A DNA stretch of 64,000 nt from Chlamydiota bacterium (GTDB lineage: Bacteria > Auribacterota > JACPWU01), in the NCBI GenBank assembly GCA_016178055.1, contig JACOUC010000034.1, positions 20,621 through 84,620 on the forward strand, in the 5' to 3' direction. The notes under the pieces were generated by a model. The model saw only the letters and a list, made by a program, of their open reading frames with translations, was not told the DNA's origin and did not search any database. A program made the position numbers and the translations under genes. Below are positions 6,120-62,834 of this stretch, one piece after another. Position 1 is the stretch's first letter. Each line of letters opens with the position of its first letter.

Positions 6120-7676
6120 ATGACTCAAGAAAAAAAAGGTAAAGTCTATCTTGTCGGGGCGGGGCCAGGAGATCCAGGGCTTTTGACTGTGAAGGCACTT
6201 CATCTCATCCAAGAGGCAGACGTTCTTGTCTATGATGCTCTGGTCTCTGAGAATATTATTCGTAATGCTCCTTCCAGTGTCGAACTTATTTTTGTTGGGA
6301 AAAGAGGTGGGGAAGTTTCCGTTTCTCAAAAAGAGATTGAAGCGATTTTAATTGAAAAGACTCATCAAGGGAAAACGGTCGTTCGATTGAAAGGGGGAGA
6401 TCCCTTTATTTTTGGCCGAGGAGCTGAAGAGGCTTTATTTCTAACCCATCAAGGAATTGATTGGGAGGTGGTTCCCGGCGTATCCTCTGCAGTTGCAGTT
6501 CCAGCCTATGCAGGGATTCCCTTAACGCATCGAGATTTTACTTCATCAGTAGGTTTTTTGACAGGTCATGAAAATTCAAGAGAGGAAGAGAGTCAGATCC
6601 CTTGGTCTAAAATTTCGACTGGTTTAGGTACACTGGTTTTTTTAATGGGGGTTTCTCAACTACAACATATTGTTCACGAGCTTATTCGGAATGGACGGCC
6701 CACCTCAACTCCCTGTGCCATGGTTATGTGGGGGACGCTTCCAAGGCAAAAAACAGTTGTAGGAAATTTGTCCGATGTCGTTGGAAAGGTAAAAGAGGCT
6801 GGGTTAGAGGCGCCTTCTATTTTTATTGTTGGAGAAGTGGTTAGACTTCGGGAAAAGCTTAACTGGTTTGAAAAGGGACCTCTTTTTGGGAAAAGGATTT
6901 TAGTCACCCGCTCAAGAGAACAAGCCAGTACATTGGTTAATACTCTAGAAAAATTGGGGGCAGACCCTATTGAGTTTCCCGTGCTTCAGGTGGTTCCCCC
7001 TGAAAATTGGGCTCCGATCGACCAGGCGATTTTTCATTTAGCAAAATTTAACTGGATTGTTTTTACCAGTGTCAATGCGGTCAATATTTTTTTAGAACGT
7101 TTGAAGCTTCATTTAAAAGATATTCGAGATTTAAAAGGAATCAAAATTGCGGCCATGGGTGATGTAACGCGTGAAGCGCTTGAAAAATACAGCATCAGCG
7201 TTGATTTAACCCCTCGCGAATTTGTTTCGGAGGCCTTGCTAGAAAGTTTTAAGGAGTTAGGAAATCTTAAAAGTCAAAATTTTCTTTTACCTCGAGCCGA
7301 GGGGGCGAGAATTCTTCTTTCTGAGGGATTAAAAAAAGAAGGGGCTTGGGTGACGGATATCATTCTTTATAAAACAGTCTATCCTCCGATCCATGAAGGA
7401 TCTTCGTTCCTCCATGAAATTTTTAATTCTAAAATGGACTGGGTTACTTTTACCAGTTCCTCTACAGTCAAAAATTTTGTTGAGAGTTTGGGAAATCATT
7501 TTGAATCCTTAAAAAATCATTTTAAGGTGGCCAGCATAGGTCCCATTACTTCGGCTACAGCCCGAGGATTAGGTTTAAAGGTGGATATTGAAGCAAAGGT
7601 TCATACGATTGAAGGTTTGGTAGAGGCGTTGGTGGAGTATGAAAATCCAGAAATCAAATATCAAAAATCAAAATGA
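6120..7676 (+). CDS. cobA/hemD: uroporphyrinogen-III C-methyltransferase / uroporphyrinogen-III synthase fusion (CobA-HemD); C-terminal ..IKYQKSK tail and stop supplied by Family A repeat
   Basis: 518 aa; N-terminal VYLVGAGPGDPGLLT SAM-dependent tetrapyrrole methylase; C-terminal ~250 aa HemD-like (RILVTRSREQ..); last ~8 codons plus TGA lie inside repeat arm. Confidence 0.85.
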   Translation: MTQEKKGKVYLVGAGPGDPGLLTVKALHLIQEADVLVYDALVSENIIRNAPSSVELIFVGKRGGEVSVSQKEIEAILIEKTHQGKTVVRLKGGDPFIFGRGAEEALFLTHQGIDWEVVPGVSSAVAVPAYAGIPLTHRDFTSSVGFLTGHENSREEESQIPWSKISTGLGTLVFLMGVSQLQHIVHELIRNGRPTSTPCAMVMWGTLPRQKTVVGNLSDVVGKVKEAGLEAPSIFIVGEVVRLREKLNWFEKGPLFGKRILVTRSREQASTLVNTLEKLGADPIEFPVLQVVPPENWAPIDQAIFHLAKFNWIVFTSVNAVNIFLERLKLHLKDIRDLKGIKIAAMGDVTREALEKYSISVDLTPREFVSEALLESFKELGNLKSQNFLLPRAEGARILLSEGLKKEGAWVTDIILYKTVYPPIHEGSSFLHEIFNSKMDWVTFTSSSTVKNFVESLGNHFESLKNHFKVASIGPITSATARGLGLKVDIEAKVHTIEGLVEALVEYENPEIKYQKSK

Positions 7677-7765
7677 CAAACCAAAATTTAAAATACTTCC
7701 CTTGCAAGGGTGCTAGAATATTTTTGAATTTTGATGTGTCATTTTGCATTTTGATTTTTGGATTC
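7645..7765. repeat. Family A palindromic MITE/REP-like element (copy A1)
   Basis: Left arm aaatcaaatatcaaaaatcaaaatgacaaaccaaaatttaaaat, unique centre, right arm attttgatgtgtcattttgcattttgatttttgg (inverted). Confidence 0.8.
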
Positions 7766-8609
7766 TAAATTAATTATGAAGCTAGGTAAATTTGAAATCT
7801 ATGTTATTTCTGACGGTCTCTTTCAATTGGATGGCGGGACGATGTTTGGCATTGTTCCTAAGGTGATTTGGTCTAAATTTCTTCAAGTTGATCAAAATAA
7901 CATGGCTTTATGGGGGACGCATTGCCTTTTGGTTGTTGTGAAAGGTAAAAAGATTTTAATTGAAACGGGAATTGGATCAAAGCTTGATTCCAAGAAAAAG
8001 AAAATTTATGGTCGATCAGATGATGGAGCTTTTTCACAAAATTTAAAGAAAGCAGGTTTTAGTTTTGAGGAGATTGATTTTGTCATTCCAACCCATTTAC
8101 ATATGGATCATGCAGGAGGCTTTACTTGTTTTGAAAATGGAAAATTAAAGACGCGGTTTTCAAAGGCCCGATACTTGATTCAGAAAAAAGAATGGGAGGC
8201 TGCGATTCATCCTACGCGTTTGAGTCGGGGATCGTATTGGGAGGAGAATTTTTTGCCTGTCTTGGATCATCATCAGGTAGAATGGCTTGATGGAGATATA
8301 GAGTTGTTGCAAGGTCTCGATATTATGCTGACGGGTGCCCATAGCCAAGGCCATCAGGCGATTAAAATTTTTTCAGAAGGGAAAACACTTTTTTGTGGTG
8401 GGGATCTTATCCCGAGCCGTTGGCATGTTCGCCAAACTTTTGTTTGTGCTTATGACCTTTGCCCGATGGAGGTGAGTGAATTAAAAACCAAGTGGTTAGA
8501 GAGGGCCTATCAGGAAGATTGGATTCTTCACTGGTACCATGATCCTGAAATGCCCTTTGGAAAAGTCAATAAAGAAGGGGAGAATTTTGTAGGAGACCTC
8601 CGAAAGTGA
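7758..8609 (+). CDS. MBL-fold metallo-hydrolase
   Basis: 283 aa; HLHMDHAGG (HxHxDH) zinc-binding motif. Confidence 0.7.
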   Translation: MDSKLIMKLGKFEIYVISDGLFQLDGGTMFGIVPKVIWSKFLQVDQNNMALWGTHCLLVVVKGKKILIETGIGSKLDSKKKKIYGRSDDGAFSQNLKKAGFSFEEIDFVIPTHLHMDHAGGFTCFENGKLKTRFSKARYLIQKKEWEAAIHPTRLSRGSYWEENFLPVLDHHQVEWLDGDIELLQGLDIMLTGAHSQGHQAIKIFSEGKTLFCGGDLIPSRWHVRQTFVCAYDLCPMEVSELKTKWLERAYQEDWILHWYHDPEMPFGKVNKEGENFVGDLRK

Positions 8610-8882: not shown

Positions 8883-8887
8883 AACAT

Positions 8888-9016
8888 TAAATCAACATTC
8901 AAAAACCAAAATGCAAAATGACAATGTAAAATTTAAAACTTCCTTTTCGCAATAGCATTAGATCATTTTTGGATTTTGATATGTCATTTTGATGTTTGAT
9001 CTTTGATTTTTGAATT
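8888..9016. repeat. Family A palindromic element (copy A2)
   Basis: aaaaccaaaatgcaaaatgacaatgtaaaatttaaaa .. ttttggattttgatatgtcattttgatgtttgatctttgatttttgaa. Confidence 0.8.
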
Positions 9017-9018
9017 TA

Positions 9019-10254
9019 CTACATATTTTCTACAATCGCCTGACCAAATTCAGAGCATTTGAGAAGCTTAGCCCCTTCCATCTGGCGTTCTAAATCGTAG
9101 GTAACCCGCTTTTGAAGAAAGGTCTTGCGAAGTCCTTTCACCACTAAATCAGCTGCCTCTTGCCATCCCAAATATTCCAACATCATAACCCCAGAAAGAA
9201 TCAAAGAGCTAGGATTAATCTTATCCTGGCCTGCGTATTTGGGAGCTGTACCATGAGTCGCCTCAAAAACAGCAACTTCTTCTCCAATATTGGCACCCGG
9301 TCCAAGGCCCAATCCACCCACTTGGGCCAATAAGGCATCGGACATATAATCTCCATTCAAATTCGGAAGAGCAAGTACACTATAGTCAGAAGGCCTCAAC
9401 AAAACCTGTTGAAACATCGCATCAGCAATCACATCATTGATTAAGATTTTATCCTTAGGTCTTTTACCGCCAAAATTTTTTTCAATATCCTCATAGGTTA
9501 CTAATTCTCCTGAAAATTCCTGCCGAGCCAATTCATAACCCCATTCTCGAAAGGCCCCTTCCGTAAACTTCATAATGTTGCCCTTATGAACCATCGTCAC
9601 CGAAGATTTGTGGTGACGAATCGCATATTGAACGGCCATGCGAATTAAACGCTTGGAGCCCATGACGCTCATGGGTTTAACGCCAATACCAGAATCAGGA
9701 CGAATTTTACAACCCATCTCTTCATTCAGAAAACGGATCACTCTCTCTACTTCTTTGGACCCTTGCTTCCATTCAATCCCGGCATAAACATCTTCCGTAT
9801 TTTCTCGAAAAATCACCATGTCAACGAGTTCAGGTCTTTTAATCGGGGAAGGGACCCCTTCAAAATATCGAACGGGCCTCACACACGCAAAAAGATCTAA
9901 TTCTTGACGAAGCGTAACATTCAGACTACGAATTCCCCCTCCGACCGGAGTTGAAAGAGGCCCTTTAATCCCTACCCGAAATTCGCGAAGCGTCTGAAGC
10001 GTTTCTTCAGGAAGCCAATGATTCATTTTGCTCTTTGCCTTTTCACCGGCAAAAACTTCTAACCATTGAATCTCCCTTTTCCCGTCATAGGCCTTCTTCA
10101 CGGCAGCATCCCACACAGGTTGAGTTGCAGCCCAAATATCGGGTCCAACGCCATCGCCCTCAATGTAAGGAATAATCGGCTTAACGGGTACTTTTAATTT
10201 TCCTCCCTCTTTCACAATGGGAGAACCTTTTTCTAACACGTCATTTCGCATCAT
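9019..10254 (-). CDS. icd: NADP-dependent isocitrate dehydrogenase
   Basis: [44 protein letters not shown] near-identical to Icd core; true start taken at MMRNDV (the 22-codon upstream extension in the ORF track is translation of repeat A3). Confidence 0.85.
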
Positions 10255-10269
10255 CGAAACCCTCCGCCA

Positions 10270-10402
10270 AAAAATCCAAAATTCGAAAATCAAAATGCAA
10301 AATGACAAATCAAAATCCAAAAATTTCTAGTGCTATTGCAAAGGTAAAATTTTAAATTTTACAATGTCATTTTAGTTTTTGATTTTTGCATTTTGGATTT
10401 AA
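10270..10402. repeat. Family A palindromic element (copy A3) filling the entire icd/aminotransferase intergenic gap
   Basis: aaatccaaaattcgaaaatcaaaatgcaaaatgacaaatcaaaatccaaaaat .. acaatgtcattttagtttttgatttttgcattttggattt. Confidence 0.8.
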
Positions 10403-11580
10403 AAAAATTTCCTAAAGAAACTTTCAATCCTGTCCACACCCTTTTTAATATTTTCCATCGAAGTCGCATAGGAAAGACGGATATAATCATCCGCCCCAAA
10501 AGGTGCTCCTGGAACAACCGCCACATGGGCTTCTTCGAGCAAACGCTGAGAAAGTTTCGCTGAACCAATCCCATAGCGAGCCACATTCGGAAAAACATAA
10601 AACGCACCTTCAGGCTTTCGAACATGTACTTTGGGTATTTGGTTCAGCCGATCCACAATAGTGTCTCTTCTTTCTTGGAAGGCCTTAGCCATTTTCTTCA
10701 CACATTCATCCGTCCCTTTTAAAGCAGCAACCGCCGCCTTCTGAGAAATGGACGTTGGATTGGATGTGCTATGACTCTGCAAACGATTCATCGCACTTAC
10801 AATTTGACTGGGCCCGGCCAAATAACCGATACGCCAACCGGTCATGGAATAGGATTTTGAAACCCCATTCACCACCAAGGTTTGGTCCTTATTAAAATTA
10901 GCCAAACTCGTATGCTTCATTTCATCGTAAAGCAGCTCTGAATAAATTTCATCGGAAATAACATAAACTCCACCTGAAAATACAATCTTCGCAATCTCCT
11001 TTAATTCATCCTGGGTATAGGCAGATCCGGTTGGATTAGATGGGCTGTTCATGATAATGACTTTTGTCTTCCGACTCACAACCTTTTTAAGATTAACTGG
11101 ATTAATCTTAAAACCCTCTTCCTCCCGAGTTCTTAAAAAAACGGGCGTCGCATTGGCCAACCGTACCAGTTCAGGATAGGTCACCCAATAGGGAACAGGA
11201 ATAATCACCTCATCATCCTTATCGCACAAAGACAAAATCGCATTAAATAAGGAATGTTTCGCCCCGCAAGAAACAATAACGTTTTCGGGAGCATAGTCTA
11301 AATTCTGATCTTTCTTAAATTTTTCGCAAATGGCCTTCTTAAGCTCGAGCGTTCCCCCTGAAGGCGTATATTTTGTAAAACCTTCATCAATGGCCTTCTT
11401 CGCAAACTCCTTAATATGATCAGGAGTATCAAAATCCGGCTCTCCAGCCGCAAAACTCACCACATCCACACCTTGAGCTTTTAATTCCCCTGACCGAGCA
11501 TTGATCGCCAAAGTTTCAGACTCACTGATCGCCATCACGCGTTTAGCCAAAACGGTATGTGTTTTAAGAAGGGTATTCAT
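10399..11580 (-). CDS. pyridoxal-phosphate-dependent aminotransferase (aspartate/aromatic aminotransferase class I)
   Basis: 393 aa; SFAAGEPDFDTP..YTPSGG, NSPSNPTG, SKSYSMTGWRIGY (PLP lysine region). Confidence 0.8.
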   Translation of the reverse strand: MNTLLKTHTVLAKRVMAISESETLAINARSGELKAQGVDVVSFAAGEPDFDTPDHIKEFAKKAIDEGFTKYTPSGGTLELKKAICEKFKKDQNLDYAPENVIVSCGAKHSLFNAILSLCDKDDEVIIPVPYWVTYPELVRLANATPVFLRTREEEGFKINPVNLKKVVSRKTKVIIMNSPSNPTGSAYTQDELKEIAKIVFSGGVYVISDEIYSELLYDEMKHTSLANFNKDQTLVVNGVSKSYSMTGWRIGYLAGPSQIVSAMNRLQSHSTSNPTSISQKAAVAALKGTDECVKKMAKAFQERRDTIVDRLNQIPKVHVRKPEGAFYVFPNVARYGIGSAKLSQRLLEEAHVAVVPGAPFGADDYIRLSYATSMENIKKGVDRIESFFRKFF

Positions 11581-12803
11581 GACCTTACTCCCTCTAACAT
11601 TTTTCCACCTAGAAAACGCTCGACCATCGGTCGAATATCGTTTTCCGCAATTTTCACAATTTTAATCTCACGCTCAGCATTTTCGACCGAATCAGAGGCA
11701 TGGGCTGCATTCACCAAAATATTCTGTCCAAATTCTCTGCGAACCGTCGCAGGTGCAGCCTTATTCGGATCGGTTAATCCTAAAACCCCCCTGATCTTTT
11801 GAACAGCATCTTTTCCTTGATAGACCAAAGCCAAACATTTTTGTAAACCCGGTTCTTTTGTCTTTTCAGAATCCGTTATTTCTGATGGATCGGAACCCGT
11901 CATAAATTTCACAATTTTATCGAATTCATGAGAACCATGAAGCGGAGCAAGCTGGTTCGTCAAATGTTCCAAAATTTCATTTGGAATTTTAAAATCAAAT
12001 TTCTCTTGAAGCCCTGCTTGAACACGTTCTGCCACGCCCCCTTTTAATTTCTCTTGAAGAATCTTTTTAACCGGCCCATAAAATTCCATGGCTTGAGCCA
12101 CACTCATTTGAATGAGACGGGCCGAAATAATATAAAGTCCCGTCTTGGAGAACATATCAATAATATTGCCGACACGACTGGTCGGCCTTTGAAAATTTTC
12201 AGGCTTAATCAAAACCAACACCTTTTCCGGTTTCGTCCCCTTAGGATATTGGATGACATCCTCTAAAAGGCCCCCATCGGTATCAGAATATTTTGCCCAA
12301 AGCGAAAGTTGTTCGCTCGCCCCTTTTGGGTTCGGAATCACGAGAACGGCCGGTTCAAAATAACGAACCTTTCCCTCCTGATCGATCAAACAATCTCCAT
12401 AGGTATCTCGAATCGTCTCTCCACTGATCGAAAGAGAAGTAATATGCCCCACCACTTCATCGCGAATCTTTTGAACCGCATTCTCTCCGTAAAAAAGAAG
12501 CATAATCACCCTGCGCCGTTGACCCGTCTCGGGATCTGGAGAAAAATTATCAAGCACATATTGAGAAATCAAATCCCGAAGAACTTCCTTATGACGACCT
12601 ACCCGAATATCCACTTCATCCTGAACATCTTGATTTCGAAGAAGCGCTGCATATTCTTCAACCAATTTCTGACTGGGTGCAAACATCCGTACCGCCACCA
12701 ATTCCTGTTCTGCCCGAGCTAAAAGACGGGCAACGATCCCACCCGTACGAGATTTCAAAATGGTATACGGGGTCACCAAAACATATGCTAATTCTTTTGC
12801 CAT
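11577..12803 (-). CDS. tandem nucleoside-diphosphate-kinase-like domain protein (N-terminal degenerate NDK-like domain; C-terminal NDK domain with catalytic His, NAAHASDSVENAEREI)
   Basis: 408 aa; two segments with NDK fold signatures (LVTPYTILKSRTGGIVARLL.. and VLVLIKPENFQRPTSRVGNIIDMF..); only second retains N-x2-H-[GA]-SD. Confidence 0.5.
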   Translation of the reverse strand: MAKELAYVLVTPYTILKSRTGGIVARLLARAEQELVAVRMFAPSQKLVEEYAALLRNQDVQDEVDIRVGRHKEVLRDLISQYVLDNFSPDPETGQRRRVIMLLFYGENAVQKIRDEVVGHITSLSISGETIRDTYGDCLIDQEGKVRYFEPAVLVIPNPKGASEQLSLWAKYSDTDGGLLEDVIQYPKGTKPEKVLVLIKPENFQRPTSRVGNIIDMFSKTGLYIISARLIQMSVAQAMEFYGPVKKILQEKLKGGVAERVQAGLQEKFDFKIPNEILEHLTNQLAPLHGSHEFDKIVKFMTGSDPSEITDSEKTKEPGLQKCLALVYQGKDAVQKIRGVLGLTDPNKAAPATVRREFGQNILVNAAHASDSVENAEREIKIVKIAENDIRPMVERFLGGKMLEGVRS

Positions 12804-12852
12804 GAGAATAAAACTCCTTCTTAAATGGAATTGTGGAGGATTATATCAGTAA

Positions 12853-12880
12853 TGAAAATCAAAAATCAAATATCAAAAAT
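12853..12880. repeat. Family A half element (left arm only)
   Basis: aaaatcaaaaatcaaatatcaaaaatcaaaat without inverted partner. Confidence 0.5.
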
Positions 12881-13039
12881 CAAAATTGTGGAGTTTAATG
12901 AGATAGGACAAAAACTGAACAGACAAGCCTAAGGAAAAGGAGCGTACAGCCGCCAACAAAAAAGATGTGTTAATAAAACCTTACCAGCGGTTTAGTGCTG
13001 ACCGCTGTACGCATTGATTGAATGTCTTCGTTTTACCTT

Positions 13040-16291: not shown

Positions 16292-16609
16292 TCAATAAGC
16301 GTAGGGATTCTCATAGGGATTTCTTGCCCCTGAAGTCGATCTTCGAGCAACCAGGGGCGAACCGTCAAGAGGACACTGGCCAGGACGGTCAGAAATATAA
16401 TCGCCGTTAGGACACGAATAATAGACTTCTGAAGAATATCCACGATAGGAATCTCCTCCTTCTCGGCTTGCAAAACCTCCTTGGTAAGAATGATTTCCTC
16501 GATAGCGATTTTCAGAATAATACCCATAATCGCGGTCTGCGAAGGCCTTCATCGAAAGAAGAGAAAAAAGAACCACACCCGAGATCAACGTATATTTTTT
16601 TAATATCAT
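16292..16609 (-). CDS. hypothetical small secreted Tyr/Gly/Arg-rich protein, weak heavy-metal-binding-domain-like C-terminus
   Basis: Signal peptide MILKKYTLISGVVLFSLLSMKAFA; YYSCPNGDYISDRPGQCPLDGSPLV loosely resembles YxCPMHP..PGxCPxCGMxL HMBD pattern. Confidence 0.3.
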   Translation of the reverse strand: MILKKYTLISGVVLFSLLSMKAFADRDYGYYSENRYRGNHSYQGGFASREGGDSYRGYSSEVYYSCPNGDYISDRPGQCPLDGSPLVARRSTSGARNPYENPYAY

Positions 16610-16880: not shown

Positions 16881-17930
16881 ATGGCAGAAACTCTTGAAAA
16901 AACACTTTCAAAATACACCATCGAAGGAGAGCTTTATAGCCTCCTCCCCGATGGAAAAATTCAATGTTATGCCTGTGGTCATTTATGCAAAATCGCCCCC
17001 GACCATCGAGGGGTGTGTCTCGTCCGATCCAATCGAGATGGAAAACTTTATGTCCCTTTTGGCTACGTGGGAGCCCTTCAGCATGATCCCATCGAGAAAA
17101 AACCTTTCTTTCACGCCCTTCCAGGCTCGTCTGCCTTAAGCTTTGGAATGCTGGGATGTGATTTTCACTGTTCGTATTGTCAAAATTGGTTCACCTCTCA
17201 GGCCTTAAGAGACCCTCAAGCAGAATCCTCACCTCATCCCATCAGTCCCCAAGAACTGGTCCGTCTGACACAAAAATATCAAGCCCCTGTCATTGCCAGC
17301 ACTTACAATGAACCCTTGATTACCAGTGAATGGGCTGCCGCCATTTTCAAAGAAGCCAAACGAGCAGGCCTTAAAACAGCCTATATCTCAAATGGGAATG
17401 CGACAGAAAGGGTGCTTGATTATCTTCGTCCCTGGGTTGATCTTTATAAAGTGGATCTAAAAAGTTTTGACGAAAATCATTATCGCCAACTCGGAGGGCA
17501 GCTCCAAACAGTCCTTAAAACGATTTCTCTTCTGAAAGAAAAAGGATTTTGGGTAGAAGTTGTCACTCTGTGTATTCCTGGATTTAATGATTCCGATCAA
17601 GAGCTCAAAAAAATAGCCCAATTTCTTGTTTCTATTTCAAAAGAAATTCCCTGGCATGTCACCGCCTTTCATCAAGACTACAGAATGCAGGATCGAAACG
17701 GAACACCTGCCTCCACCCTTTTAAGGGCCGCCCACATTGGAAAAGAAGCCGGACTTGATTTTGTCTATGCTGGGAATCTTCCGGGTCAGGTTGGAGAATT
17801 TGAGAATACACATTGCCCTCATTGTCAGACAACGATTATTGAACGTTTGGGTTTTAATGTGATTAAAAATCGACTAGTCAATGGCCAATGCCCACAATGT
17901 CAAACTAAGATTCCAGGAGTGTGGGAGTAG
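16881..17930 (+). CDS. AmmeMemoRadiSam-system radical SAM enzyme (PFL-activating-enzyme-like)
   Basis: 349 aa; N-terminal CYACGHLCKIAPDHRGVCLVRSNRDGKLY signature, radical SAM cluster GCDFHCSYCQNW, C-terminal CPHC/CPQC. Confidence 0.8.
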   Translation: MAETLEKTLSKYTIEGELYSLLPDGKIQCYACGHLCKIAPDHRGVCLVRSNRDGKLYVPFGYVGALQHDPIEKKPFFHALPGSSALSFGMLGCDFHCSYCQNWFTSQALRDPQAESSPHPISPQELVRLTQKYQAPVIASTYNEPLITSEWAAAIFKEAKRAGLKTAYISNGNATERVLDYLRPWVDLYKVDLKSFDENHYRQLGGQLQTVLKTISLLKEKGFWVEVVTLCIPGFNDSDQELKKIAQFLVSISKEIPWHVTAFHQDYRMQDRNGTPASTLLRAAHIGKEAGLDFVYAGNLPGQVGEFENTHCPHCQTTIIERLGFNVIKNRLVNGQCPQCQTKIPGVWE

Positions 17931-17936
17931 GTCGTA

Positions 17937-18060
17937 ATATCAAAAATCAAAATGCAAATATCAAAATGACAAACTAAAATTTAAATAGTTAAAACCTAAG
18001 ACGTTGCAAAATTTTGGATTTCAATCTGTCATTTTGATTCTTGTCATCATGAACTTTCAG
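17937..18060. repeat. Family A palindromic element (copy A5)
   Basis: atcaaaaatcaaaatgcaaatatcaaaatgacaaactaaaatttaaat .. ttttggatttcaatctgtcattttgattcttgtca; additional arm-like fragment at 18128-18165. Confidence 0.75.
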
Positions 18061-18214
18061 TCCACCCAAGTGGATGAAAATTGAGTTCCTCCCCTTTGGG
18101 GTACAAAGGAGGGGAATAGCCAGTAACAACGTCTCATTTTCATGACTGATTTTTGATATTTGATTTAATTTCAGTCTCGCGACAAGGGTCAACTCGTTTA
18201 TGTTATGATAAACC

Positions 18215-18634
18215 ATGATTCCTAAGAACCCGTCCAAGCTTGCCCTACTCATTCAACATGCCTCTTATGAGAAATGGCATTTGGCGGCTACGCTTGCGGC
18301 AACGACAACCGCCATGGGGGGAGAAGTTCATATTTTTCTTTCTCATGAAGCTTTAATCTCTTTTGTCCAAGAAGAAATGGATTTGGCGCCTCCCCAATTT
18401 GCAAATAAAAAAATCAATGAATGCTATCAGACTTTTTTGGAAGAAGAAAAAATTTCTAAGCCCACTAACCTTTTCAAACGAGCCAAAGAGTTAGGCCCTC
18501 TCAAATTCTATGGTTGCTCAGAATCCGTCAAACTTTTTAGACTCCAGGCAGAATATACAAAAAAATTGGACGGTGTCATCGGATACATGACCTTCCTTGA
18601 TATTGCATCTGACGGAAGATTCATTGTTATTTAG
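18215..18634 (+). CDS. hypothetical protein, possibly DsrE/DsrF-like fold
   Basis: 139 aa; KLALLIQHASYEKWHLAATLAATTTAMGGEVHIFL pattern reminiscent of DsrE/TusD family; weak. Confidence 0.3.
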   Translation: MIPKNPSKLALLIQHASYEKWHLAATLAATTTAMGGEVHIFLSHEALISFVQEEMDLAPPQFANKKINECYQTFLEEEKISKPTNLFKRAKELGPLKFYGCSESVKLFRLQAEYTKKLDGVIGYMTFLDIASDGRFIVI

Positions 18635-18698
18635 TCGCCAGTCGCCTGTCACCAGTCACCAGGGGAAAAACCAATGCATTTCATTCACAAAATATGTT

Positions 18699-19292
18699 TC
18701 ACGAAAAAAAAAGTTCTATCACTTCATTGAGATTTGATAAAACAAGATCGGCTTGTGACAGATAAGAGGCTGGTAGTGAGGTTGAAAGGGCAATACAAGT
18801 AAGTCCTGCGCTCTTCGCCGCTCGGATTCCGTAGGGAGCATTTTCAATCACTATCACTTCTTCAGAACTTAAACCCAACTTCTCCAAACCCATGAGATAG
18901 GGCTCTGGATGGCGTTCACCGTGATGAACGTCACTGGCGGTAACCACCCCTCGAAAATAATTTAACACCTCTTCTTTTAAGAAAACCCTGACTTCGGAAA
19001 GAAAAGAACCCGTTACGATTCCTAAGCGATAGCCCTGCTGATGAAATTTTTCAATGCATATCCGGGCCTCTGGAAAAAGATGGGCGGCTTCCATCTCTTT
19101 CAGCCGTTTTTCTTTATCGAGAATAAGATTTTGAATGGTATCGGGATGAGGGGTCATCCCCACCTTAACCCCTACGGAGCGCAAAGCCTCTCGCCACGCC
19201 TGATCGTGAAGATGCATGCTATCGACCAAAACCCCATCGAGATCGAATAGAATACCTTTAAATTTTCTAGGCTCAAAATTTTTCCCAGACAT
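18699..19292 (-). CDS. HAD-family hydrolase (beta-phosphoglucomutase-like)
   Basis: 197 aa; ILFDLDGVLVDS motif I, GIVTGS motif II region. Confidence 0.75.
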   Translation of the reverse strand: MSGKNFEPRKFKGILFDLDGVLVDSMHLHDQAWREALRSVGVKVGMTPHPDTIQNLILDKEKRLKEMEAAHLFPEARICIEKFHQQGYRLGIVTGSFLSEVRVFLKEEVLNYFRGVVTASDVHHGERHPEPYLMGLEKLGLSSEEVIVIENAPYGIRAAKSAGLTCIALSTSLPASYLSQADLVLSNLNEVIELFFS

Positions 19293-22534: not shown

Positions 22535-22544
22535 TGATGGAATT

Positions 22545-22672
22545 TTAAATCAAAAACCAAATATCAAAAATAAAAATGACAGATTAAAATCCAAAATGTA
22601 TCTACGCTTAGTTTTGTGAAAAATTTCGATCTTTGATTTGTCATTTTGATATTTGCATTTTGATTTTTGATA
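22545..22672. repeat. Family A palindromic element (copy A7)
   Basis: aaatcaaaaaccaaatatcaaaaataaaaatgacagattaaaatccaaaat .. ctttgatttgtcattttgatatttgcattttgatttttgat. Confidence 0.8.
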
Positions 22673-22679
22673 TAAGAAA

Positions 22680-28658: not shown

Positions 28659-28994
28659 TTAATCTAAGTTAAGAACAAGTTTAAGGGCTTTATCAACTTT
28701 CTCCATCTCATCGAGCGAAACCTCGGCCATCTTTTCTCCTAATCGCCTTTTGTCAAGGGTCCTCATCTGATCAAGCAAAACCTTATTTCTATTCCCCTTC
28801 AAAATGATCTCTGCTTCAAAGGGGTAAAGCTTCTTAGCCTCAGAAGTAATCGGAGCCACAATCACACGCGTAGAAACCTCATTTCCCACATCATTGGAAA
28901 CGATCAGACCTGGTCTCGTTTTTTTGATCTCGCTTCCAATAGCAGGATCAAGCCTGACCCAATAAACTTCCCCTCTTTTCGGAAATTTAATCAT
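28659..28994 (-). CDS. mazF: type II toxin-antitoxin toxin, PemK/MazF family endoribonuclease
   Basis: 111 aa; RGEVYWVRLDPAIGSEIKKTRPGLIVSND..RVIVAPITS. Confidence 0.8.
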   Translation of the reverse strand: MIKFPKRGEVYWVRLDPAIGSEIKKTRPGLIVSNDVGNEVSTRVIVAPITSEAKKLYPFEAEIILKGNRNKVLLDQMRTLDKRRLGEKMAEVSLDEMEKVDKALKLVLNLD

Positions 28995-30474: not shown

Positions 30475-30488
30475 ATCATAACCTCTGA

Positions 30489-30616
30489 AAATCCAAAATC
30501 CAAAAATCAAAATGCAAAATGACGATCCAAAATTCAAATATTTTTAACGCAACGACATGGGAAACATTTTGGATTTTGATGTGTCATTTTGATTTTTGAT
30601 TTTTGATTTTTGATTT
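30489..30616. repeat. Family A palindromic element (copy A8) between dgt start and der stop
   Basis: aaatccaaaatccaaaaatcaaaatgcaaaatgacgatccaaaattcaaat .. ttttggattttgatgtgtcattttgatttttgatttttgatttttgattt. Confidence 0.8.
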
Positions 30617-31939
30617 ATAAGTAAATTGTATGGGAACCCCTTCAAAACCAAATTTTTTTCGAAACTCTCGTTCTAGAAAAAACCGGTAGGACTCTTTCAC
30701 AAAGTTTGCCTGATTGACTTGAATACTAAATTGAGGGGGGGTTACTCCATCCTGAGTCATCGAAAAAAATCGAGGGACATGTCCTTGTTCACTGGGAGGT
30801 TGACGAAACTCTATCGCCCGATGAATAAATTTGTCTAGATCGTCTTCTGAAATTCGAACCCGCGCATTGTCATAAACTTGAATAATTTTTTGAATTAAAT
30901 TTTCGATTCTAAACCCTGTTAAGGCTGAACAAAAAATCATAGGATAAATCTCCAAAAACTTCCACCGTGAGACCAGCATCTTAGAAAATTCTTTTTCAGG
31001 TGCTTCTTTAACCAGATCCCATTTATTCAAAGCCAAGACACATCCCTTCATGCCTCTACGAATCTCATCCAAAATCCTGACATCTTGAGCACTCACTCCA
31101 GAGGCACCATCTAAAACTAAAACCGAAAGATCAGCCCGGCGAATACTGTTTAAAGCCCGCATGACACTGAAAGTCTCAGGGCCCCTTCGAACCTGTTTTC
31201 TCTTACGCATCCCGGCGGTATCCACAAAAACAAAGGGTCGTCCTCCAATTTCAATCTCGACATCTACCGCATCCCGTGTGGTTCCAGGAGCATCATCTAC
31301 AATTAAACGTTTTTTTCCAAAAAGATGATTGATCAGGGTTGATTTTCCTACATTGGGTTTTCCAACCACCGACACTTTAATCGCATCAACAACAGGAATC
31401 ACTTTTTGATCTTTATTCTCATCGCTTTTTTCAGGTTTTTCTAATATTTCTTCTACAAAATCCATTAATTCTGAAATACCTCGCCCATGGGTTGCAGAAA
31501 TCATCACCACCGGTTCAAAACCTAATTGATGAAACTCTCGAGCGGCCAATTCCTCATTCAGATTATCTACTTTATTGACCACCAAAAACACCTTTTTCCC
31601 AGATTCTCTAACCCACCTGGCCACCTCTCGATCCAGTGACGTGATCCCTTCTTGGACATCGACTGTAAAAAGTAAAAGGCTGGCTTCTTTTAAAGCTTCG
31701 CGGACCTGTTCGCGAACTTGTTGATGAAGAGAATCCTTTTCTCGAAGATCCACACCTCCGGTATCCACCAAATTAAAGAGAAGTCCATTGGATTCACAAC
31801 GTGTCTGAACCCGATCACGTGTCACACCCGATTCTTCATGAACAATTGAAATCCGATGGCCTACAAGACGGTTAAAGAGCGTCGATTTTCCGACATTGGG
31901 TCGACCAATAATGGCAATGGTATTTTTTTTAAGCATCAT
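30584..31939 (-). CDS. der: ribosome-biogenesis GTPase Der (EngA), double GTPase domain; C-terminal KIKNQKSK tail and TGA from Family A repeat
   Basis: Two P-loops GRPNVGKST and GKPNVGKST, KH-like C-terminus. Confidence 0.9.
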   Translation of the reverse strand: MMLKKNTIAIIGRPNVGKSTLFNRLVGHRISIVHEESGVTRDRVQTRCESNGLLFNLVDTGGVDLREKDSLHQQVREQVREALKEASLLLFTVDVQEGITSLDREVARWVRESGKKVFLVVNKVDNLNEELAAREFHQLGFEPVVMISATHGRGISELMDFVEEILEKPEKSDENKDQKVIPVVDAIKVSVVGKPNVGKSTLINHLFGKKRLIVDDAPGTTRDAVDVEIEIGGRPFVFVDTAGMRKRKQVRRGPETFSVMRALNSIRRADLSVLVLDGASGVSAQDVRILDEIRRGMKGCVLALNKWDLVKEAPEKEFSKMLVSRWKFLEIYPMIFCSALTGFRIENLIQKIIQVYDNARVRISEDDLDKFIHRAIEFRQPPSEQGHVPRFFSMTQDGVTPPQFSIQVNQANFVKESYRFFLEREFRKKFGFEGVPIQFTYKSKIKNQKSK

Positions 31940-34856: not shown

Positions 34857-36690
34857 ATGCCCATTTCTCTGCTTTTATTTTTTGAATCATTTCGTGTGCA
34901 AACTCATTCTTAGGGTCTAAAAGAAGCACCCTCTTTAAAATAAGCATCCCTTTTTCTATTTGCCCTGTTCTCAGGACCACAGAGGCAAGACTACACAAAC
35001 GGCTCGGGTCATAGGGATTCATCCTGACCTGAAGCAACAAATGTTGACCCGCCTTCTCTAAATCCCCCATGCGACTATAAATCGTTCCCAAATTACCATG
35101 GACTGAAGCAAAAAACGGGGCAAATTCTATGACCTTCTCATAAGTTTTTGCTGCTTCTTCATTTCTCTCCATCAAACCATATAAAAAGGCCATCCTGTAT
35201 CTCGCCTCAATATGTTGCTGGTTTATTTGAAGCGCTTTTTGATAAAAAGAAAGCGCCTTCTCGTAAAAACCCTGTTTTCTTGCCTGAACACCCTTTTCAA
35301 AATAAACCTCCGAAAGAAAAGGGCGAAAGAATCCTTGGTAAAAAACAGTCACGGAAACGATCACACCTGAAAAACAGATAATTCTTTGAACAAATGAATT
35401 TTTTCTGAAGGACTTCTTTTCCCCTTTGTCTAGGAAACAAAGCCCATAACTGGTCCCTAAAAAAGACCAAAAGACAAACTTGGACGATAAGTATCGCAAA
35501 TTGACATCAAATAAATTCTCAAAATAAAGAAGCAGGGCTCCTAAAAGAAGAGAAAAAAGAATATTTTTTGAAAAGGGATCTAGAGACTTTGCCCTTTCAA
35601 ATGCTTTAATGCCAAGCAAAAGCAAGAAAAGGATAAAAACCAATACCCCGATAATCCCCGTCTCAGCAAAAAGTTCCAATATTTCCGAATGAGCATGATC
35701 TGTATTATCGACACTTTCTGAATTGATAAAATATTCTGGAATCCGGTATGGGGGATAAAAGACAAAATATTGACCCGGTCCACATCCCAACAAGGGATGA
35801 TCTTGAATGAGTTGAAGAGTCCCCTTCCAAATAAAGGGGCGAACATCTTGAACAATTTGTGTCACTAAAGATTCTTTAACCCAGGGAATTTGGAAAATAA
35901 AAATGACAAAAGCTCCGTAGACCCCAAGAGTCCCTAACCGCAATCGACGATTTTTAAAATGAATAAGAATTAAAAAAGGGATACTCAGCCCCAAACTCAA
36001 AACCATCGCCCAGGAGCGGATAAAAACGGCATTGATCATAAAGAGGATGAGATCAATAAGAGAGATAAATTGCAGCGCTTTCCCCCCCCTTAATTTAAGG
36101 GGGGCAAGGGGGTTTATTTCATTTCTTAACCCAAGAAGCAACACAGGCCAAAGTGCAATAAGATAAGCCCCGTAAAAATTTGGATTTCCAAAGAAGGATG
36201 TTGGCTTATTCCCCAACCAAGGACTTTGATGAAAGAGAATTTGAAATATTCCCATTCCAAGAATAAAGAGAAGAGCAAGGTTATTGATCTTGATAAAAAA
36301 ATGTGCAAAACCCTTTTCAGCTAGCCTGGCATAGGCATAAAAAAAGAATATCAGAAGGCCCAATTCTGAAAGATACGGAATAGCTGAAAGATGCGATGAA
36401 CTCATCAAAAGACTCACAGCATTCACCACCCAAAACAGAAGAAGAAGACCATCCATCCATCGATTTCTAATCTTAAAGATTCGAACCTCATCAAAATTTA
36501 AAAAAATAATTGAAAGAAGAACACACCCCCCTAGTCCAAAGACTAAGTTTTTAATCTGAGTCGGATAATAGGTGATGGAACTGTAAGCGAGGGGAATAGA
36601 AAGAACGAGGAATACTAAACAAACGATTGGGAGTCTATCAAAAAAATATTTTGGGCGATTCGTAGAGGTAGAAATTATTTTCTTAACCAA
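34855..36690 (-). CDS. O-antigen ligase/polymerase-like polytopic membrane protein with C-terminal TPR repeats
   Basis: 611 aa; about 10 TM N-terminal region, TPR repeats in last about 150 aa. Confidence 0.5.
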   Translation of the reverse strand: MVKKIISTSTNRPKYFFDRLPIVCLVFLVLSIPLAYSSITYYPTQIKNLVFGLGGCVLLSIIFLNFDEVRIFKIRNRWMDGLLLLFWVVNAVSLLMSSSHLSAIPYLSELGLLIFFFYAYARLAEKGFAHFFIKINNLALLFILGMGIFQILFHQSPWLGNKPTSFFGNPNFYGAYLIALWPVLLLGLRNEINPLAPLKLRGGKALQFISLIDLILFMINAVFIRSWAMVLSLGLSIPFLILIHFKNRRLRLGTLGVYGAFVIFIFQIPWVKESLVTQIVQDVRPFIWKGTLQLIQDHPLLGCGPGQYFVFYPPYRIPEYFINSESVDNTDHAHSEILELFAETGIIGVLVFILFLLLLGIKAFERAKSLDPFSKNILFSLLLGALLLYFENLFDVNLRYLSSKFVFWSFLGTSYGLCFLDKGEKKSFRKNSFVQRIICFSGVIVSVTVFYQGFFRPFLSEVYFEKGVQARKQGFYEKALSFYQKALQINQQHIEARYRMAFLYGLMERNEEAAKTYEKVIEFAPFFASVHGNLGTIYSRMGDLEKAGQHLLLQVRMNPYDPSRLCSLASVVLRTGQIEKGMLILKRVLLLDPKNEFAHEMIQKIKAEKWA

Positions 36691-37124
36691 TATGCCAACT
36701 CCGTCGTCGAATAAACTTTTACATCAGTCTGATTTTTCAAACCTTTATCATTCGACCATACAGAAATTTTAAGAAAGAGGGCAAGAGCCAAGTAGGGTGC
36801 ATCTTCGTCGTGAGGAGCCAAGACCAATGCTTTTGAAAAATATGACTGATAAGATTGATAAGGAACTGTTTTAATATTCTGTGTTAACAAAATTAACAAA
36901 TGATCTATTTCTTTTATCGTTAAACCAATTCTCCTTCTCAATGAAGCATCTTCTCTTAAGTGTTTTGATACTTCAAAAATTAAATACTCTGGAGCAAAAA
37001 GACTCAAGCGCGCATCCAATAAAAGCTCTCTCGTAAAAGCTTCCTTTTTAAAACACGCCAGAAGAATATTAGCATCAATAACTAATTCCAATCTAATCTT
37101 CCTTATGATGTTTCTTGAAAACAC
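36675..37124 (-). CDS. PIN-domain protein (VapC-like putative toxin)
   Basis: 149 aa; LVIDANILLACF N-terminal PIN signature with acidic residues. Confidence 0.55.
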   Translation of the reverse strand: MFSRNIIRKIRLELVIDANILLACFKKEAFTRELLLDARLSLFAPEYLIFEVSKHLREDASLRRRIGLTIKEIDHLLILLTQNIKTVPYQSYQSYFSKALVLAPHDEDAPYLALALFLKISVWSNDKGLKNQTDVKVYSTTELAYWLRK

Positions 37125-37532: not shown

Positions 37533-38066
37533 TTAAGCTGTAGGTCCTGACGGATTCGTACTGGTAGAGTCTGCGTGTCCATCAACGAAAACTACGTTCG
37601 CCGGACGTGGAGCATCATGAGGACCAACAACAGTAACACCAGCAGCATTAGTAAATTCCTGGTCAATAGCAACAGGTGAATCTGAGGCAGAATTCTCATT
37701 CAAGGTATTGTCATACTGATATTGGATACTCGCTGCAATAAAGGCACTCGCTGCAATTGTTGTTCCGGTAGAAGGGCATTGAAAAACATTTACGTCTGTC
37801 ATGTATAAAGATGTCCTTAGAAGATCTAAAGAGCTCTTCCCTTGACCAGCAATCCCTGTCGTAGGAAATAACTCTCTATAATCAATCGAGTAGGTATGAA
37901 TTGATGTAATAATCTGCTTTAAATTATTCAAGCACTTGGTCTGACTTGCACGGCGACGGGCTTTGGCTAGGGCTGGGAGGAGCATGCTGGCCAAGATCGC
38001 AATGATGGCGATAACGACGAGGAGCTCAATTAATGTAAATCCTTTTTTACTTTTCCTAATCTTCAT
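37533..38066 (-). CDS. prepilin-type N-terminal cleavage/methylation domain protein with H-X9-DG (DUF1559) C-terminus, paralog 1
   Basis: [63 protein letters not shown]. Confidence 0.8.
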
Positions 38067-38369
38067 AACTTTTTCTCCTTTTTGTTCAAAATTGATTTAG
38101 TCCTTTAACCTACCCATCTAACAGCAATGCCTAAGTCAATTAGCAATTCCTATATAGTAGCAATTCCTAAGCCAAAATAATATTTAAAAAAAATATTTTA
38201 TAATTATTTTTAAGTACCTTATTTACAATTAATTATAGAAAATAAATTTTAATGTGTTTTAAAAACATTTTATTTTAAGAATTTAAGGAATGTGTGGTTT
38301 TCGCTCAAAAAGAGCTTAAAAAACGCGTTTTAGATTTTTTATTTATGAAAAAGTAAGAGCGGGAATATT

Positions 38370-38942
38370 CTATTCGCTTGTATTGGTAGGATCTTTAGAA
38401 GTTCCACTGGCATGACCATCAACGTAAACCACATTAATGGACAAGGGATCATCATGATTGCCCTTGCTCATCATTCCACCTAAATCAAGAGCCCCATCAT
38501 CATTGGCTACAGCTGAATCACTCGAACTAAATTCCGATAAAGTTCTATCATATTCATAATCAACTCCTTCAAAAGTACTCACATTCTCTTTCGCATCTCC
38601 AGCTGGGCATTTCATAACATTACTGTATTGAGGAAAATATTGTAATGTTCGAAGCAAATTCAAAGATTTTTTCCCATTGTAGGAAAGAGGGTTAATTGGG
38701 GCCGGTTGATCAATCTCTCCAGTCGTTGGAAATTTTTCACGATAATCCATGGAATACGTATGAATAGCCATGATGATCTGTCGAAGATTACTTAAACATT
38801 TTGTTTGGCTGGAACGGCGACGGGCCTTAGCTAAAGCTGGAAGTAGCATACCAGCAAGAATTGCAATAACTGCCATGACCACAAGGAGTTCAATAAGAGT
38901 GAAACCTCGATTGAGTCGCTTACCATTAATCTGCCTTAACAT
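38370..38942 (-). CDS. prepilin-type/DUF1559 protein, paralog 2
   Basis: [64 protein letters not shown]. Confidence 0.8.
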
Positions 38943-38951
38943 ATTATGCTT

Positions 38952-39521
38952 CTATTCGCCTGTGTTTCCAGGATCGGTGGTAACGCTGTCCTCATGTCCA
39001 TCTACGTAGACAACATTAAAGGCTTTGGGGGCATCGTGATTCCCTGGGTGAGTATCATCCGCCCCCTTTGGATCGTCATCGTTCGCAACAGCTGAATCAC
39101 TCGAGCTAAATTCAGATAACAGATTGTCATATTGATAATCAACTCCCCTGTAGTCACTATCATCGGTAGCATTACCCGAAGGACACCTAAGGACGGGCGA
39201 GCCATGAAAAGGGCCTGTTGGTGAACCTGCCGCAGGGATAGGCAAATACCCAGACCGTGCAAGCAAGCATAAAGATGCCTTACCTCCATGATTATCATCT
39301 TTTGTCCCTCCAGTGTTTGGAAAAAGCTCTCGATAATCCATTGAATAGGTATGAATGGCCATGATGATTTGACGGAGGTTGTTCAGGCATTTAACCTGAT
39401 TTGCCCGGCGGCGGGCTTTGGCAAGGGACGGCAAGAGCATGCTGGCCAAAATGGCAATAATGGCTATGACCACCAATAGTTCAACCAGCGTAAACCCTCG
39501 TTTTTTGGAATATTTATACAT
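38952..39521 (-). CDS. prepilin-type/DUF1559 protein, paralog 3
   Basis: [64 protein letters not shown]. Confidence 0.8.
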
Positions 39522-40905: not shown

Positions 40906-40971
40906 ACTCTTTCTTCCCCTTTCAAGTTTTGAAATAATCTTCGTTATTTTCAATAAAATTAAATTAACAGT

Positions 40972-41100
40972 GAAAATCCAAAAATCAAACATCAAAAACC
41001 AAAATGACAAATCAAAATTAAAATATTTTTCAAGACAAAGACACAGATAAATTTTGAATTTTAGTTTGTCATTTTGATTTTTGGATTTTGATTTTTGATA
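40972..41100. repeat. Family A palindromic element (copy A9) between prfB start region and lnt stop
   Basis: aaaatccaaaaatcaaacatcaaaaaccaaaatgacaaatcaaaattaaaat .. attttgaattttagtttgtcattttgatttttggattttgatttttgat. Confidence 0.8.
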
Positions 41101-45859: not shown

Positions 45860-46030
45860 GTTTTCTTCAGGCCAATCTGGCTCAAGCTCTTGCGTCTCGG
45901 TTCACGCGTCTATTGCAAAATCTGGGTTTAATTCCAGAAGGGACGAGTCTAGCAATTAGGCTCTTGATTTTCAAGAACGATTGGAGGGTCAAATTCAAAA
46001 TGCAAAATGACAGACAAAAATTCAAAATTC
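45860..46030. repeat. Family H repeat copy 2 plus Family A half element (left arm) upstream of secA
   Basis: ctggctcaagctcttgcgtctcggttcacgcgtctatt; caaattcaaaatgcaaaatgacagacaaaaattcaaaattc. Confidence 0.5.
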
Positions 46031-62679: not shown

Positions 62680-62700
62680 TTATTCACTCGCATGAATTAA

Positions 62701-62828
62701 TATCAAAAATCAAAAATCAAACATCAAAATGACAGATCAAAATTCAAAATGGCTCACAAGTTAGGATATAGAGATGATTTTTACATTTTGACTTGTCATT
62801 TTGATTTTTGCATTTTGAATTTTAAATT
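62701..62828. repeat. Family A palindromic element (copy A11) between moxR and DUF58 genes
   Basis: tatcaaaaatcaaaaatcaaacatcaaaatgacagatcaaaattcaaaat .. ttttgacttgtcattttgatttttgcattttgaatttt. Confidence 0.8.
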
Positions 62829-62834
62829 ATCTTT

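Follow-up and report, generated by a model that had tools for sequence, protein, structure and literature searches.

Genes for an AMMECR1-type protein, a radical S-adenosylmethionine (SAM) enzyme and a dioxygenase-like protein show a persistent neighbourhood association, and an uncharacterised RNA base modification has been proposed for the trio (Balaji & Aravind 2007, PMC2034487). Our literature search found no experimental or functional study of the prokaryotic AmmeMemoRadiSam system. The radical SAM member is described by TIGR04337, a "hypothetical equivalog" model that is named after the three-gene system and was delimited by the joint occurrence of its members with the two partner families. 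Judging from radical SAM chemistry, the enzyme would reductively cleave S-adenosylmethionine to a 5'-deoxyadenosyl radical, which would abstract a hydrogen atom from the substrate, and it would presumably act in one pathway with the AMMECR1-type protein A and the Memo-type protein B. The family shows 59–75% identity across many phyla and has 11 invariant cysteines; the locus studied here gives no new handle on its biochemistry.

We analyzed a window of 64 kb from an 88.8-kb GenBank contig, in which the plus-strand ORF at 16881..17930 encodes a radical SAM protein of 349 aa (GenBank MBI1870391.1). An earlier, sequence-only reading of the window had taken this protein for an AmmeMemoRadiSam enzyme, and the HMM scan upheld the assignment: the ORF scores 287.4 bits on TIGR04337, well over the curated cut-off of 220, while the runners-up, the YjjW activase (70.1 bits) and PflA (63.6 bits), are far under their own cut-offs. 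That reading had named PflA- and AhbD-type models as possibly fitting better; the enzyme does not score better on them, and TIGR04337 is the best match. The protein further scores 75.7 bits on Pfam Radical_SAM, and on TIGR04337 it exceeds an operon-linked member of the family (287 versus 268 bits for the enzyme of locus L018). We regard the 349-aa protein as a canonical AmmeMemoRadiSam-system radical SAM orthologue, an ordinary and already annotated family member: the GenBank name of the protein is "AmmeMemoRadiSam system radical SAM enzyme."

The enzyme is built around a PFL-activase-like radical SAM core, which is preceded by an N-terminal Cys4 module specific to the family and followed by a CxxC...CxxC ribbon at the C-terminus. 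The 11 cysteines of these elements (C29/32/36/46, C93/97/100 and C312/315/337/340) are invariant in 81 of 81 sequences, the window protein included, and those of the N-terminal module are also invariant in a further alignment (A5). The radical SAM [4Fe-4S] motif CX3CX2C, read from the sequence as C93, C97 and C100 (17157..17180, plus strand), is the CxxxCxxC cluster of the earlier description, which stands; the N-terminal signature given there was close and is really C29-x2-C32-x3-C36-x9-C46 (16965..17018, plus strand), followed by R49.N51..G54.L56. In the AF2 model of the enzyme (pLDDT 87.8), the N-terminal Cys4 segment sits in a beta-rich N-terminal region; the module may bind a metal or an Fe-S cluster. 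The C-terminal pair C312xxC315...C337xxC340 (17814..17900, plus strand) is ribbon-like and forms short beta-hairpins in the same model. This pair was absent from the earlier description.

Profiles for AMMECR1 and Memo, run at E ≤ 10 with filters off, had no match when the window was translated in all six frames, and the claim that neither gene stands beside the radical SAM gene thus holds across the full 64 kb. There was likewise no match in about 5.5 kb of extra flank (about 4.2 kb to the right and 1.3 kb to the left) taken from short-read Logan contigs; window and flank together are the part of the genome covered by the search. The profiles were built from a few confirmed AMMECR1 and Memo genes, mostly of Bacteroidota, and their reach extended to a Memo labelled as Thermotogae (1e-49) and to the AMMECR1 of an unclassified bacterium (1e-79). 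The two partner genes most probably lie elsewhere in the source genome.

Within this clade, the enzyme is usually encoded apart from its partners, as it is here. We compared the 80 closest genomic loci and found AMMECR1 and Memo adjacent in nine, all from Bacteroidota or Kryptoniota, with TIGR04335 (AMMECR1-type) and TIGR04336 (Memo-type) genes directly downstream of the enzyme; in locus L018, for example, the AMMECR1-type neighbour reaches 177 bits on TIGR04335 and the Memo-type neighbour 268 bits on TIGR04336. In two further loci just one partner lies within 10 kb, with AMMECR1 8 kb off and no Memo in one (L032) and only Memo in the other (L052), showing that the trio does disperse and bringing the loci with any partner within ±10 kb to 11 of 80. 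Forty loci extend for 9 kb or more on either side of the gene; both partners were absent in 32 of these and at least one was present in eight. The eight loci labelled as PVC group (Auribacterota, Omnitrophota, Planctomycetota and relatives, and Verrucomicrobiia) have no partner in their available sequence, several of these loci being short or ending near the gene.

The premise that the isolation of the gene is unusual therefore fails for this clade. Partner adjacency is the exception, found in about one in five of the fully flanked loci, with the adjacent cases all in Bacteroidota or Kryptoniota, and in lacking adjacent partners the window gene does not really differ from about 80% of its closest relatives. 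With the unlinked state being typical, an "orphan" gene calls for a genome-wide check before it is taken to point to new biology, and the locus carries little weight as a discovery: the gene is correctly annotated and its isolation is typical. Clustering of all ORFs around the unlinked enzymes found no neighbour family common to several lineages. The synteny that emerged was lineage specific: in Blastocatellia it involved a penicillin-binding-like protein and in Ignavibacteria an endonuclease-IV-like one, both recognised by eye from their sequences.

We considered the possibility that the source genome truly lacks AMMECR1 and Memo and that the enzyme works alone or with some other, non-adjacent partner, in which case the "system" would not be obligatory. 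The empty window and extension agree with this, as do the many close relatives, the majority, without a partner within 10 kb. We nevertheless consider it unlikely, given the persistent neighbourhood association of the trio and a family model named for three genes. Furthermore, the enzymes from linked and unlinked loci are indistinguishable in sequence, the window enzyme being 62–65% identical to the nine operon-linked enzymes versus about 59–70% to the 71 unlinked ones, and every cysteine motif is invariant, pointing to one conserved function; the two loci with single partners indicate dispersal rather than loss. A broader version, in which this lineage, and perhaps most of those with unlinked copies, kept the highly conserved enzyme while lacking AMMECR1 and/or Memo, the enzyme having a self-sufficient role and the trio being a lineage-specific association, also seems unlikely to us. 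A narrower form of this reading would have the enzyme draw sulfur from the adjoining DsrE-like cysteine protein.

This neighbour, a stand-alone protein of 139 aa, is encoded on the plus strand at 18215..18634 and annotated in GenBank as a "hypothetical protein" (HYS07_04275). It had been described from the sequence as DsrE-like, and both the family alignment and the fold comparison agree, placing it among the DsrE/DsrF-like proteins of the DrsE_2 type. The protein itself scores 23.9 bits on Pfam DrsE_2 (PF13686), just under the cut-off of 25, and belongs to a small sub-clade, only 165 of 1.84 billion representatives matching at E ≤ 1e-3 and two at E ≤ 1e-30. In an alignment of 40 sequences (A2), which joins the query to two near homologues and 37 more remote ones down to 21% identity, 37 sequences match DrsE_2 and 32 match DsrE (PF02635) at E ≤ 0.01. 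The AF2 model (pLDDT 87.4) predicts the DsrE/DsrF alpha/beta fold, and the best Foldseek match is 2qs7 (TM 0.79, E 4e-9), with 3pnx and 3mc3 also found. The structure 2qs7 is that of SSO1126 from Sulfolobus solfataricus, a DsrE/DsrF-like protein of unknown function that is equal in fold and length and 26% identical (phmmer E 2e-9).

The sole invariant cysteine of the 139-aa family is Cys101, within the motif YGCSE (codon 18515..18517, plus strand), conserved in all 11 sequences of a first alignment (A1) and all 40 of A2. In characterised DsrE/TusD proteins the conserved cysteine carries a persulfide. The position of Cys101 is probably equivalent to that of the TusD/DsrE active-site cysteine, and the protein may be a persulfide or thiol carrier. 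The DsrEFH and TusBCD relays have adjacent paralogous subunits; the 139-aa gene is instead flanked by a HAD phosphatase gene and the radical SAM gene, with no DsrF/DsrH or TusC/TusB paralogues nearby and only a single gene in the window found by the 40-member profile.

The two genes are separated by 284 bp, and both elements that the sequence-only reading had placed between them, a "Family A" repeat and a GC hairpin, are located there. The repeat (17933..18068) is a copy of a palindromic, A/T-rich intergenic repeat of about 135 nt, with a degenerate right arm in this copy, and the repeat core AAAATCAAAATGACA has 24 matches in the window versus 1.0 expected by chance. The family resembles REP/MITE-like palindromic repeats in being multicopy and intergenic, about 135 nt in length and built of two conserved inverted arms around a variable centre, and differs from them in its A/T-richness and its core; it matches no Rfam family, the only hit at gathering thresholds being one tRNA. 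The GC-rich hairpin inside the repeat (18086..18116) occurs once in the window and folds into a stem of 13 bp, while a second right-arm fragment (18140..18172) pairs with the outer left arm (17934-17957). The RNA fold of 17925-18214 is strongly structured (–78.2 kcal/mol, z = –4.9), and short-read assemblies break within the spacer. The hairpin has no T-run after it on the plus strand and was not called an intrinsic terminator. As the terminator scan detected no canonical intrinsic terminator anywhere in the spacer, transcription of the radical SAM gene may continue into the 139-aa gene. Promoter-like sites in the spacer were no more frequent than in shuffled sequences.

In other genomes, we found the two genes apart. 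Run over all 80 loci of the radical SAM enzyme, a profile of 40 diverse members detected no homologue of the 139-aa protein or other DsrE-family gene, and the AmmeMemo radical SAM gene was absent from the three long loci (L086, L089 and L093) and the shorter contigs (L087-L092) that hold homologues of the 139-aa gene. The latter gene has its own conserved block, comprising genes for a HAD phosphatase, HU, Zn-ADH and RlmD-like and RlmN proteins. In the window the HAD-family phosphatase gene (18699..19292, minus strand) is convergent with the 139-aa gene, and a HAD gene recurs one to three genes downstream of its homologue in all three long loci. The radical SAM gene belongs to a different block. 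The closest genome (L003, Auribacterota), with an enzyme 71% identical, the best among species-representative genomes, has the same upstream order of PFK, TPR, small protein and radical SAM genes as the window; its genes downstream of the enzyme, for a DUF971/GBBH-like protein and a cobalamin adenosyltransferase, are unlike those of the window.

Two genes from different conserved blocks thus come together where synteny breaks and a palindromic repeat fills the gap, and their adjacency is therefore fortuitous. Taken as a whole, it is quite likely that the enzyme is an ordinary unlinked member of the AmmeMemoRadiSam family, that its partners are encoded elsewhere and that the DsrE-like gene is an unrelated, chance neighbour. 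The sequence-only reading had suggested a different substrate partnership, with the DsrE-like protein, and this found no support, the two families showing zero cross-occurrence in either direction. Such a pair could work together if, for example, the DsrE-like cysteine delivered sulfur for a radical sulfur insertion, and the same-strand orientation of the genes 284 bp apart, the spacer free of detected canonical terminators and the invariant cysteine would all fit. The idea is very improbable in the light of the comparative data: the adjacency is seen in the source genome only, the loci of the 139-aa homologues do without the enzyme, the closest genome has other genes in the downstream position, the 139-aa gene retains its own downstream block and the spacer is occupied by a repeat element.

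Under the preferred reading, as an ordinary family member, the enzyme shares the radical SAM core fold and the CX3CX2C site with PflA (PDB 3c8f, 3cb8 and 8fo0). PflA 3c8f is the best PDB fold match (Foldseek E 2e-12, TM 0.76; TM 0.76–0.78 across the PflA structures, normalised to PflA) and PflA is also found by sequence (phmmer E 7e-9), the identity to the window enzyme being just 16–18%. In phmmer, query residues 83-264 align with the PflA chain of 245 residues; the window enzyme exceeds that chain by about 100 residues and has the N-terminal Cys4 module and the C-terminal CxxC...CxxC ribbon as extra elements outside the match. The PflA model TIGR02493 (63.6 bits versus a cut-off of 231.75) and TIGR02494 (57.9 versus 174.35) are both below threshold, and the identity of the 349-aa ORF as a PflA-type activase is refuted by the HMM scores at the level of family assignment. 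That a glycyl-radical-enzyme activase has been mis-assigned to TIGR04337 is accordingly close to negligible in probability, even though PFL-AE tops the solved structures by sequence and fold and activase models are the next-best HMM matches, since those models reach 36–70 bits against cut-offs of 131–496, both Cys4 extensions fall outside the PflA match and there is no glycyl radical enzyme among the part of the window ORFs that was scanned.

Upstream of the radical SAM gene and divergently transcribed from it (16292..16609, minus strand) is a gene for a small, putatively secreted protein of 105 aa rich in Tyr, Gly, Ser and Arg. The earlier description of a small secreted Tyr/Gly-rich protein fits what we found, with a signal-peptide-like N-terminus and 13 Tyr, 11 Gly, 11 Ser and 9 Arg in the predicted mature part of 81 aa. 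Its match to the heavy-metal-binding domain HMBD stays below threshold, and it includes a degenerate, HMBD-like CP...CP segment. A homologue occupies the same position in the closest Auribacterota locus, L003.

The radical SAM enzyme is an ordinary, already annotated member of a known family, and its gene stands in the family's commonest genomic arrangement. The gene (16881–17930, +; 349 aa) is preceded by a plausible ribosome-binding site, AAGAGG, 6 nt upstream of the start, and the protein's existing GenBank name is "AmmeMemoRadiSam system radical SAM enzyme." HMM classification agreed with this identity, also proposed by the sequence-only reading: the protein scored 287.4 bits on TIGR04337 (NCBIfam), whose curated cut-off is 220. 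A PflA/AhbD-type enzyme, which should score better on models of that type, was ruled out because all other radical SAM models scored far under their own cut-offs, with 70 bits for the YjjW activase and 63.6 bits for PflA.

The N-terminal cysteine signature and the CxxxCxxC cluster noticed earlier were both found in the sequence, the former as C29-x2-C32-x3-C36-x9-C46 followed by R49.N51..G54.L56 and the latter as the CX3CX2C site C93-x3-C97-x2-C100, and they are joined by a C-terminal pair, C312xxC315...C337xxC340. All 11 motif cysteines were invariant across 81 aligned family members drawn from many phyla and again in a second set (n = 33). The AlphaFold model (pLDDT 87.8) has a core resembling PFL-activating enzyme (3c8f), its nearest solved structure (E 2e-12; TM 0.76–0.78 normalised to PflA; 16–18% identity); a search of solved structures found none for any member of the family. 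The sequence-level PflA match spans residues 83–264 only, which leaves both cysteine-rich terminal modules outside the shared part. Although uncharacterised, the enzyme shows unusually high conservation, with 59–75% identity across loci and proteins and about 100 invariant positions including the 11 cysteines, under labels that span Acidobacteriota, Bacteroidota, Ignavibacteria, Omnitrophota, Planctomycetota, Thermoflexus (Chloroflexota), Methylomirabilales, and others.

By analogy with established radical SAM chemistry, the [4Fe-4S] cluster of the CX3CX2C site would cleave SAM reductively to a 5'-deoxyadenosyl radical, and this radical would then abstract a substrate hydrogen atom. A metal or an auxiliary cluster may be bound by the two Cys4 modules, or these may serve in recognition of a partner or substrate. 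The family definition and the work of Balaji & Aravind (2007, PMC2034487) suggest a single pathway shared by the enzyme, an AMMECR1-type protein, and a Memo-type protein, and the authors' proposal for it was an uncharacterised RNA base modification; our literature search found no experimental work on the prokaryotic AmmeMemoRadiSam system.

For the partner genes, we made AMMECR1 (TIGR04335) and Memo (TIGR04336) profiles from neighbouring genes confirmed by Pfam and NCBIfam. Neither had a match even at E ≤ 10 in the window (filters off) or in about 5.5 kb of additional flank from short-read contigs, which upholds the earlier observation that the enzyme lacks these neighbours. The same observation had been taken as a noteworthy orphan context, but this arrangement is common: among the 80 closest genomic loci (59–71% identity, up to 10 kb fetched per side), 69 had neither partner within the DNA fetched, and so did 32 of the 40 (80%) with at least 9 kb of flank on both sides. 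The order rSAM–AMMECR1–Memo was found in nine loci, all Bacteroidota or Kryptoniota. Two further loci are partly dispersed systems. One (L032) has only AMMECR1 (1558–2097, –), 8 kb off on the opposite strand, with no Memo within 10 kb; the other (L052, labelled Thermotogae) has only Memo (9172–9993, +), directly upstream of the rSAM gene, with no AMMECR1 within 10 kb. Eight PVC-labelled loci (Auribacterota, Omnitrophota, Planctomycetota and relatives, Verrucomicrobiia) had no partner in the DNA covered, several of them being short or ending near the gene.

Judged by identity, the window enzyme is as similar to linked enzymes, whose genes have the partners adjacent (62–65%), as to unlinked ones (59–70%, median 61%), and its TIGR04337 score of 287 bits exceeds the 268 of a linked member. 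No sequence subfamily matches the unlinked state, and clustering all neighbouring ORFs yielded lineage-specific synteny only, with no replacement partner.

The rSAM region comprises three small transcription units. A gene for a 105-aa protein (16292–16609, –) lies divergently upstream across a 271-bp spacer of 27% GC, and the gene for a 139-aa DsrE-like protein (18215–18634, +) follows after 284 bp, convergent with a HAD-family phosphatase gene (18699–19292, –). A heptamer-like direct repeat, GTCGCCA GTCGCCT GTCACCA GTCACCA GG (18635–18665), sits just 3' of the 139-aa stop codon within the 64-bp gap to the HAD gene. In GenBank, the three proteins have identical entries from a MAG that bears the label "Chlamydiae bacterium" (locus tags HYS07_04265, HYS07_04275; contig of 88,767 bp). 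The closest available genome is a Candidatus Auribacterota MAG, with 71% identity and the upstream gene order in common with the window; Auribacterota is a phylum of the PVC group, within which the GenBank label may be imprecise.

The earlier hint of a partnership with the DsrE-like protein is not supported; the two genes have no conserved link. The 80 rSAM loci gave no match either to a profile built from 40 DsrE-like relatives or in a phmmer search using the 139-aa sequence, and no AmmeMemo rSAM gene occurred in the loci encoding 139-aa homologues (L086, L089, and L093, 8–16 kb each; L087, L088, and L090–L092, contigs of 1–3 kb). Downstream of these homologues, a HAD phosphatase (one to three genes away) and a low-molecular-weight phosphatase recur, joined in L089 by HU, Zn-ADH, an RlmD-like methyltransferase, and RlmN; HAD, HU, ADH, RlmD-like, and RlmN come in the same order in the window. 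The gene on the 5' side differs, being a BioB-like radical SAM, a thioredoxin-domain protein, or a large unannotated protein. The Auribacterota locus (L003) shares the block PFK–77aa–TPR–small protein–rSAM with the window but continues with a DUF971/GBBH-like protein and a PduO-type cobalamin adenosyltransferase, and the rSAM/139-aa junction is thus a synteny breakpoint.

The DsrE-like call itself was borne out. The 139-aa protein scored 23.9 bits on Pfam DrsE_2 (PF13686), slightly under the threshold of 25, yet the DrsE_2/DsrE-like assignment holds: phmmer matched PDB 2qs7 (SSO1126, DsrE/DsrF-like) at E 2e-9, and the confident structure model (pLDDT 87.4) superposed on 2qs7 with TM 0.79, 3pnx and 3mc3 also matching. 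Among 40 aligned sequences, made up of the query with two close homologues and 37 relatives at greater distance, DrsE_2 was matched by 37 and DsrE by 32, and Cys101 of the motif YGCSE was invariant in all, down to 21% identity. The sub-clade is small: of 1.84 billion representatives, 165 matched at E ≤ 1e-3 and just 2 at E ≤ 1e-30. The window has no paralogous DsrE-family gene, which places the protein outside any DsrEFH/TusBCD-type complex; the simplest reading makes it a thiol or persulfide carrier that stands alone.

The upstream protein fits its earlier description as small, secreted, and Tyr/Gly-rich, with a signal-peptide-like N-terminus and 13 Tyr, 11 Gly, 11 Ser, and 9 Arg in the 81-aa mature part. 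It matches the heavy-metal-binding domain HMBD below threshold and has a degenerate two-cysteine HMBD-like segment, YSCPNGDYISDRPGQCPLDG. The gene is kept divergently 5' of the rSAM gene in the Auribacterota MAG (L003, 6114–6434, –); conservation in these two genomes only may be merely inherited gene order.

The spacer between the rSAM and 139-aa genes contains, as reported from the sequence, a GC hairpin and one copy of a palindromic A/T-rich repeat (Family A) of about 135 nt. The window has eight full copies (7640–7775, 8885–9020, 10269–10404, 17933–18068, 22543–22678, 30479–30620, 40971–41106, 62696–62831) and at least two partial ones (12838–12907, 45991–46027), all between long ORFs. Conserved arms with the core AAAATCAAAATGACA (24 window matches, chance expectation 1.0) flank a central part of some 25 nt that varies between copies. 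No Rfam family matched at gathering score, and the repeat is probably REP/MITE-like. In the spacer copy, an insert of about 100 nt appears to break the right arm; it includes the single-copy hairpin (18086–18116) and is followed by a second right-arm fragment (18140–18172), which closes an outer stem. The result (18069–18172) is a nested structure, and the spacer as a whole has a predicted fold of –78 kcal/mol (z = –4.9). Assemblies from the short reads of two samples break precisely in this copy, as a repeat with many copies would lead one to expect. A scan of the spacer detected no canonical intrinsic terminator, so transcription may read through from the rSAM gene into the 139-aa gene.

The remaining scanned ORFs of the window are ordinary chromosomal genes. 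Three tandem paralogous genes (37533–39521, –) encode 177, 190, and 189 aa; the two scanned have a prepilin-type methylation motif (N_methyl) at the N-terminus, and one of them matches DUF1559 as well. A secretin gene lies at 50060–51949, and a MazF/PemK-type toxin gene (28659–28994, –) and a PIN_2-domain gene (36675–37124, –) lie among housekeeping genes (GlmS, Der, GltX). A 408-aa ORF (11577–12803, –), far longer than a typical nucleoside diphosphate kinase, matches that family in two stretches, the best-scoring covering residues 323–383 only; the extra length may be an extension at the N-terminus or the effect of an ORF called too long.
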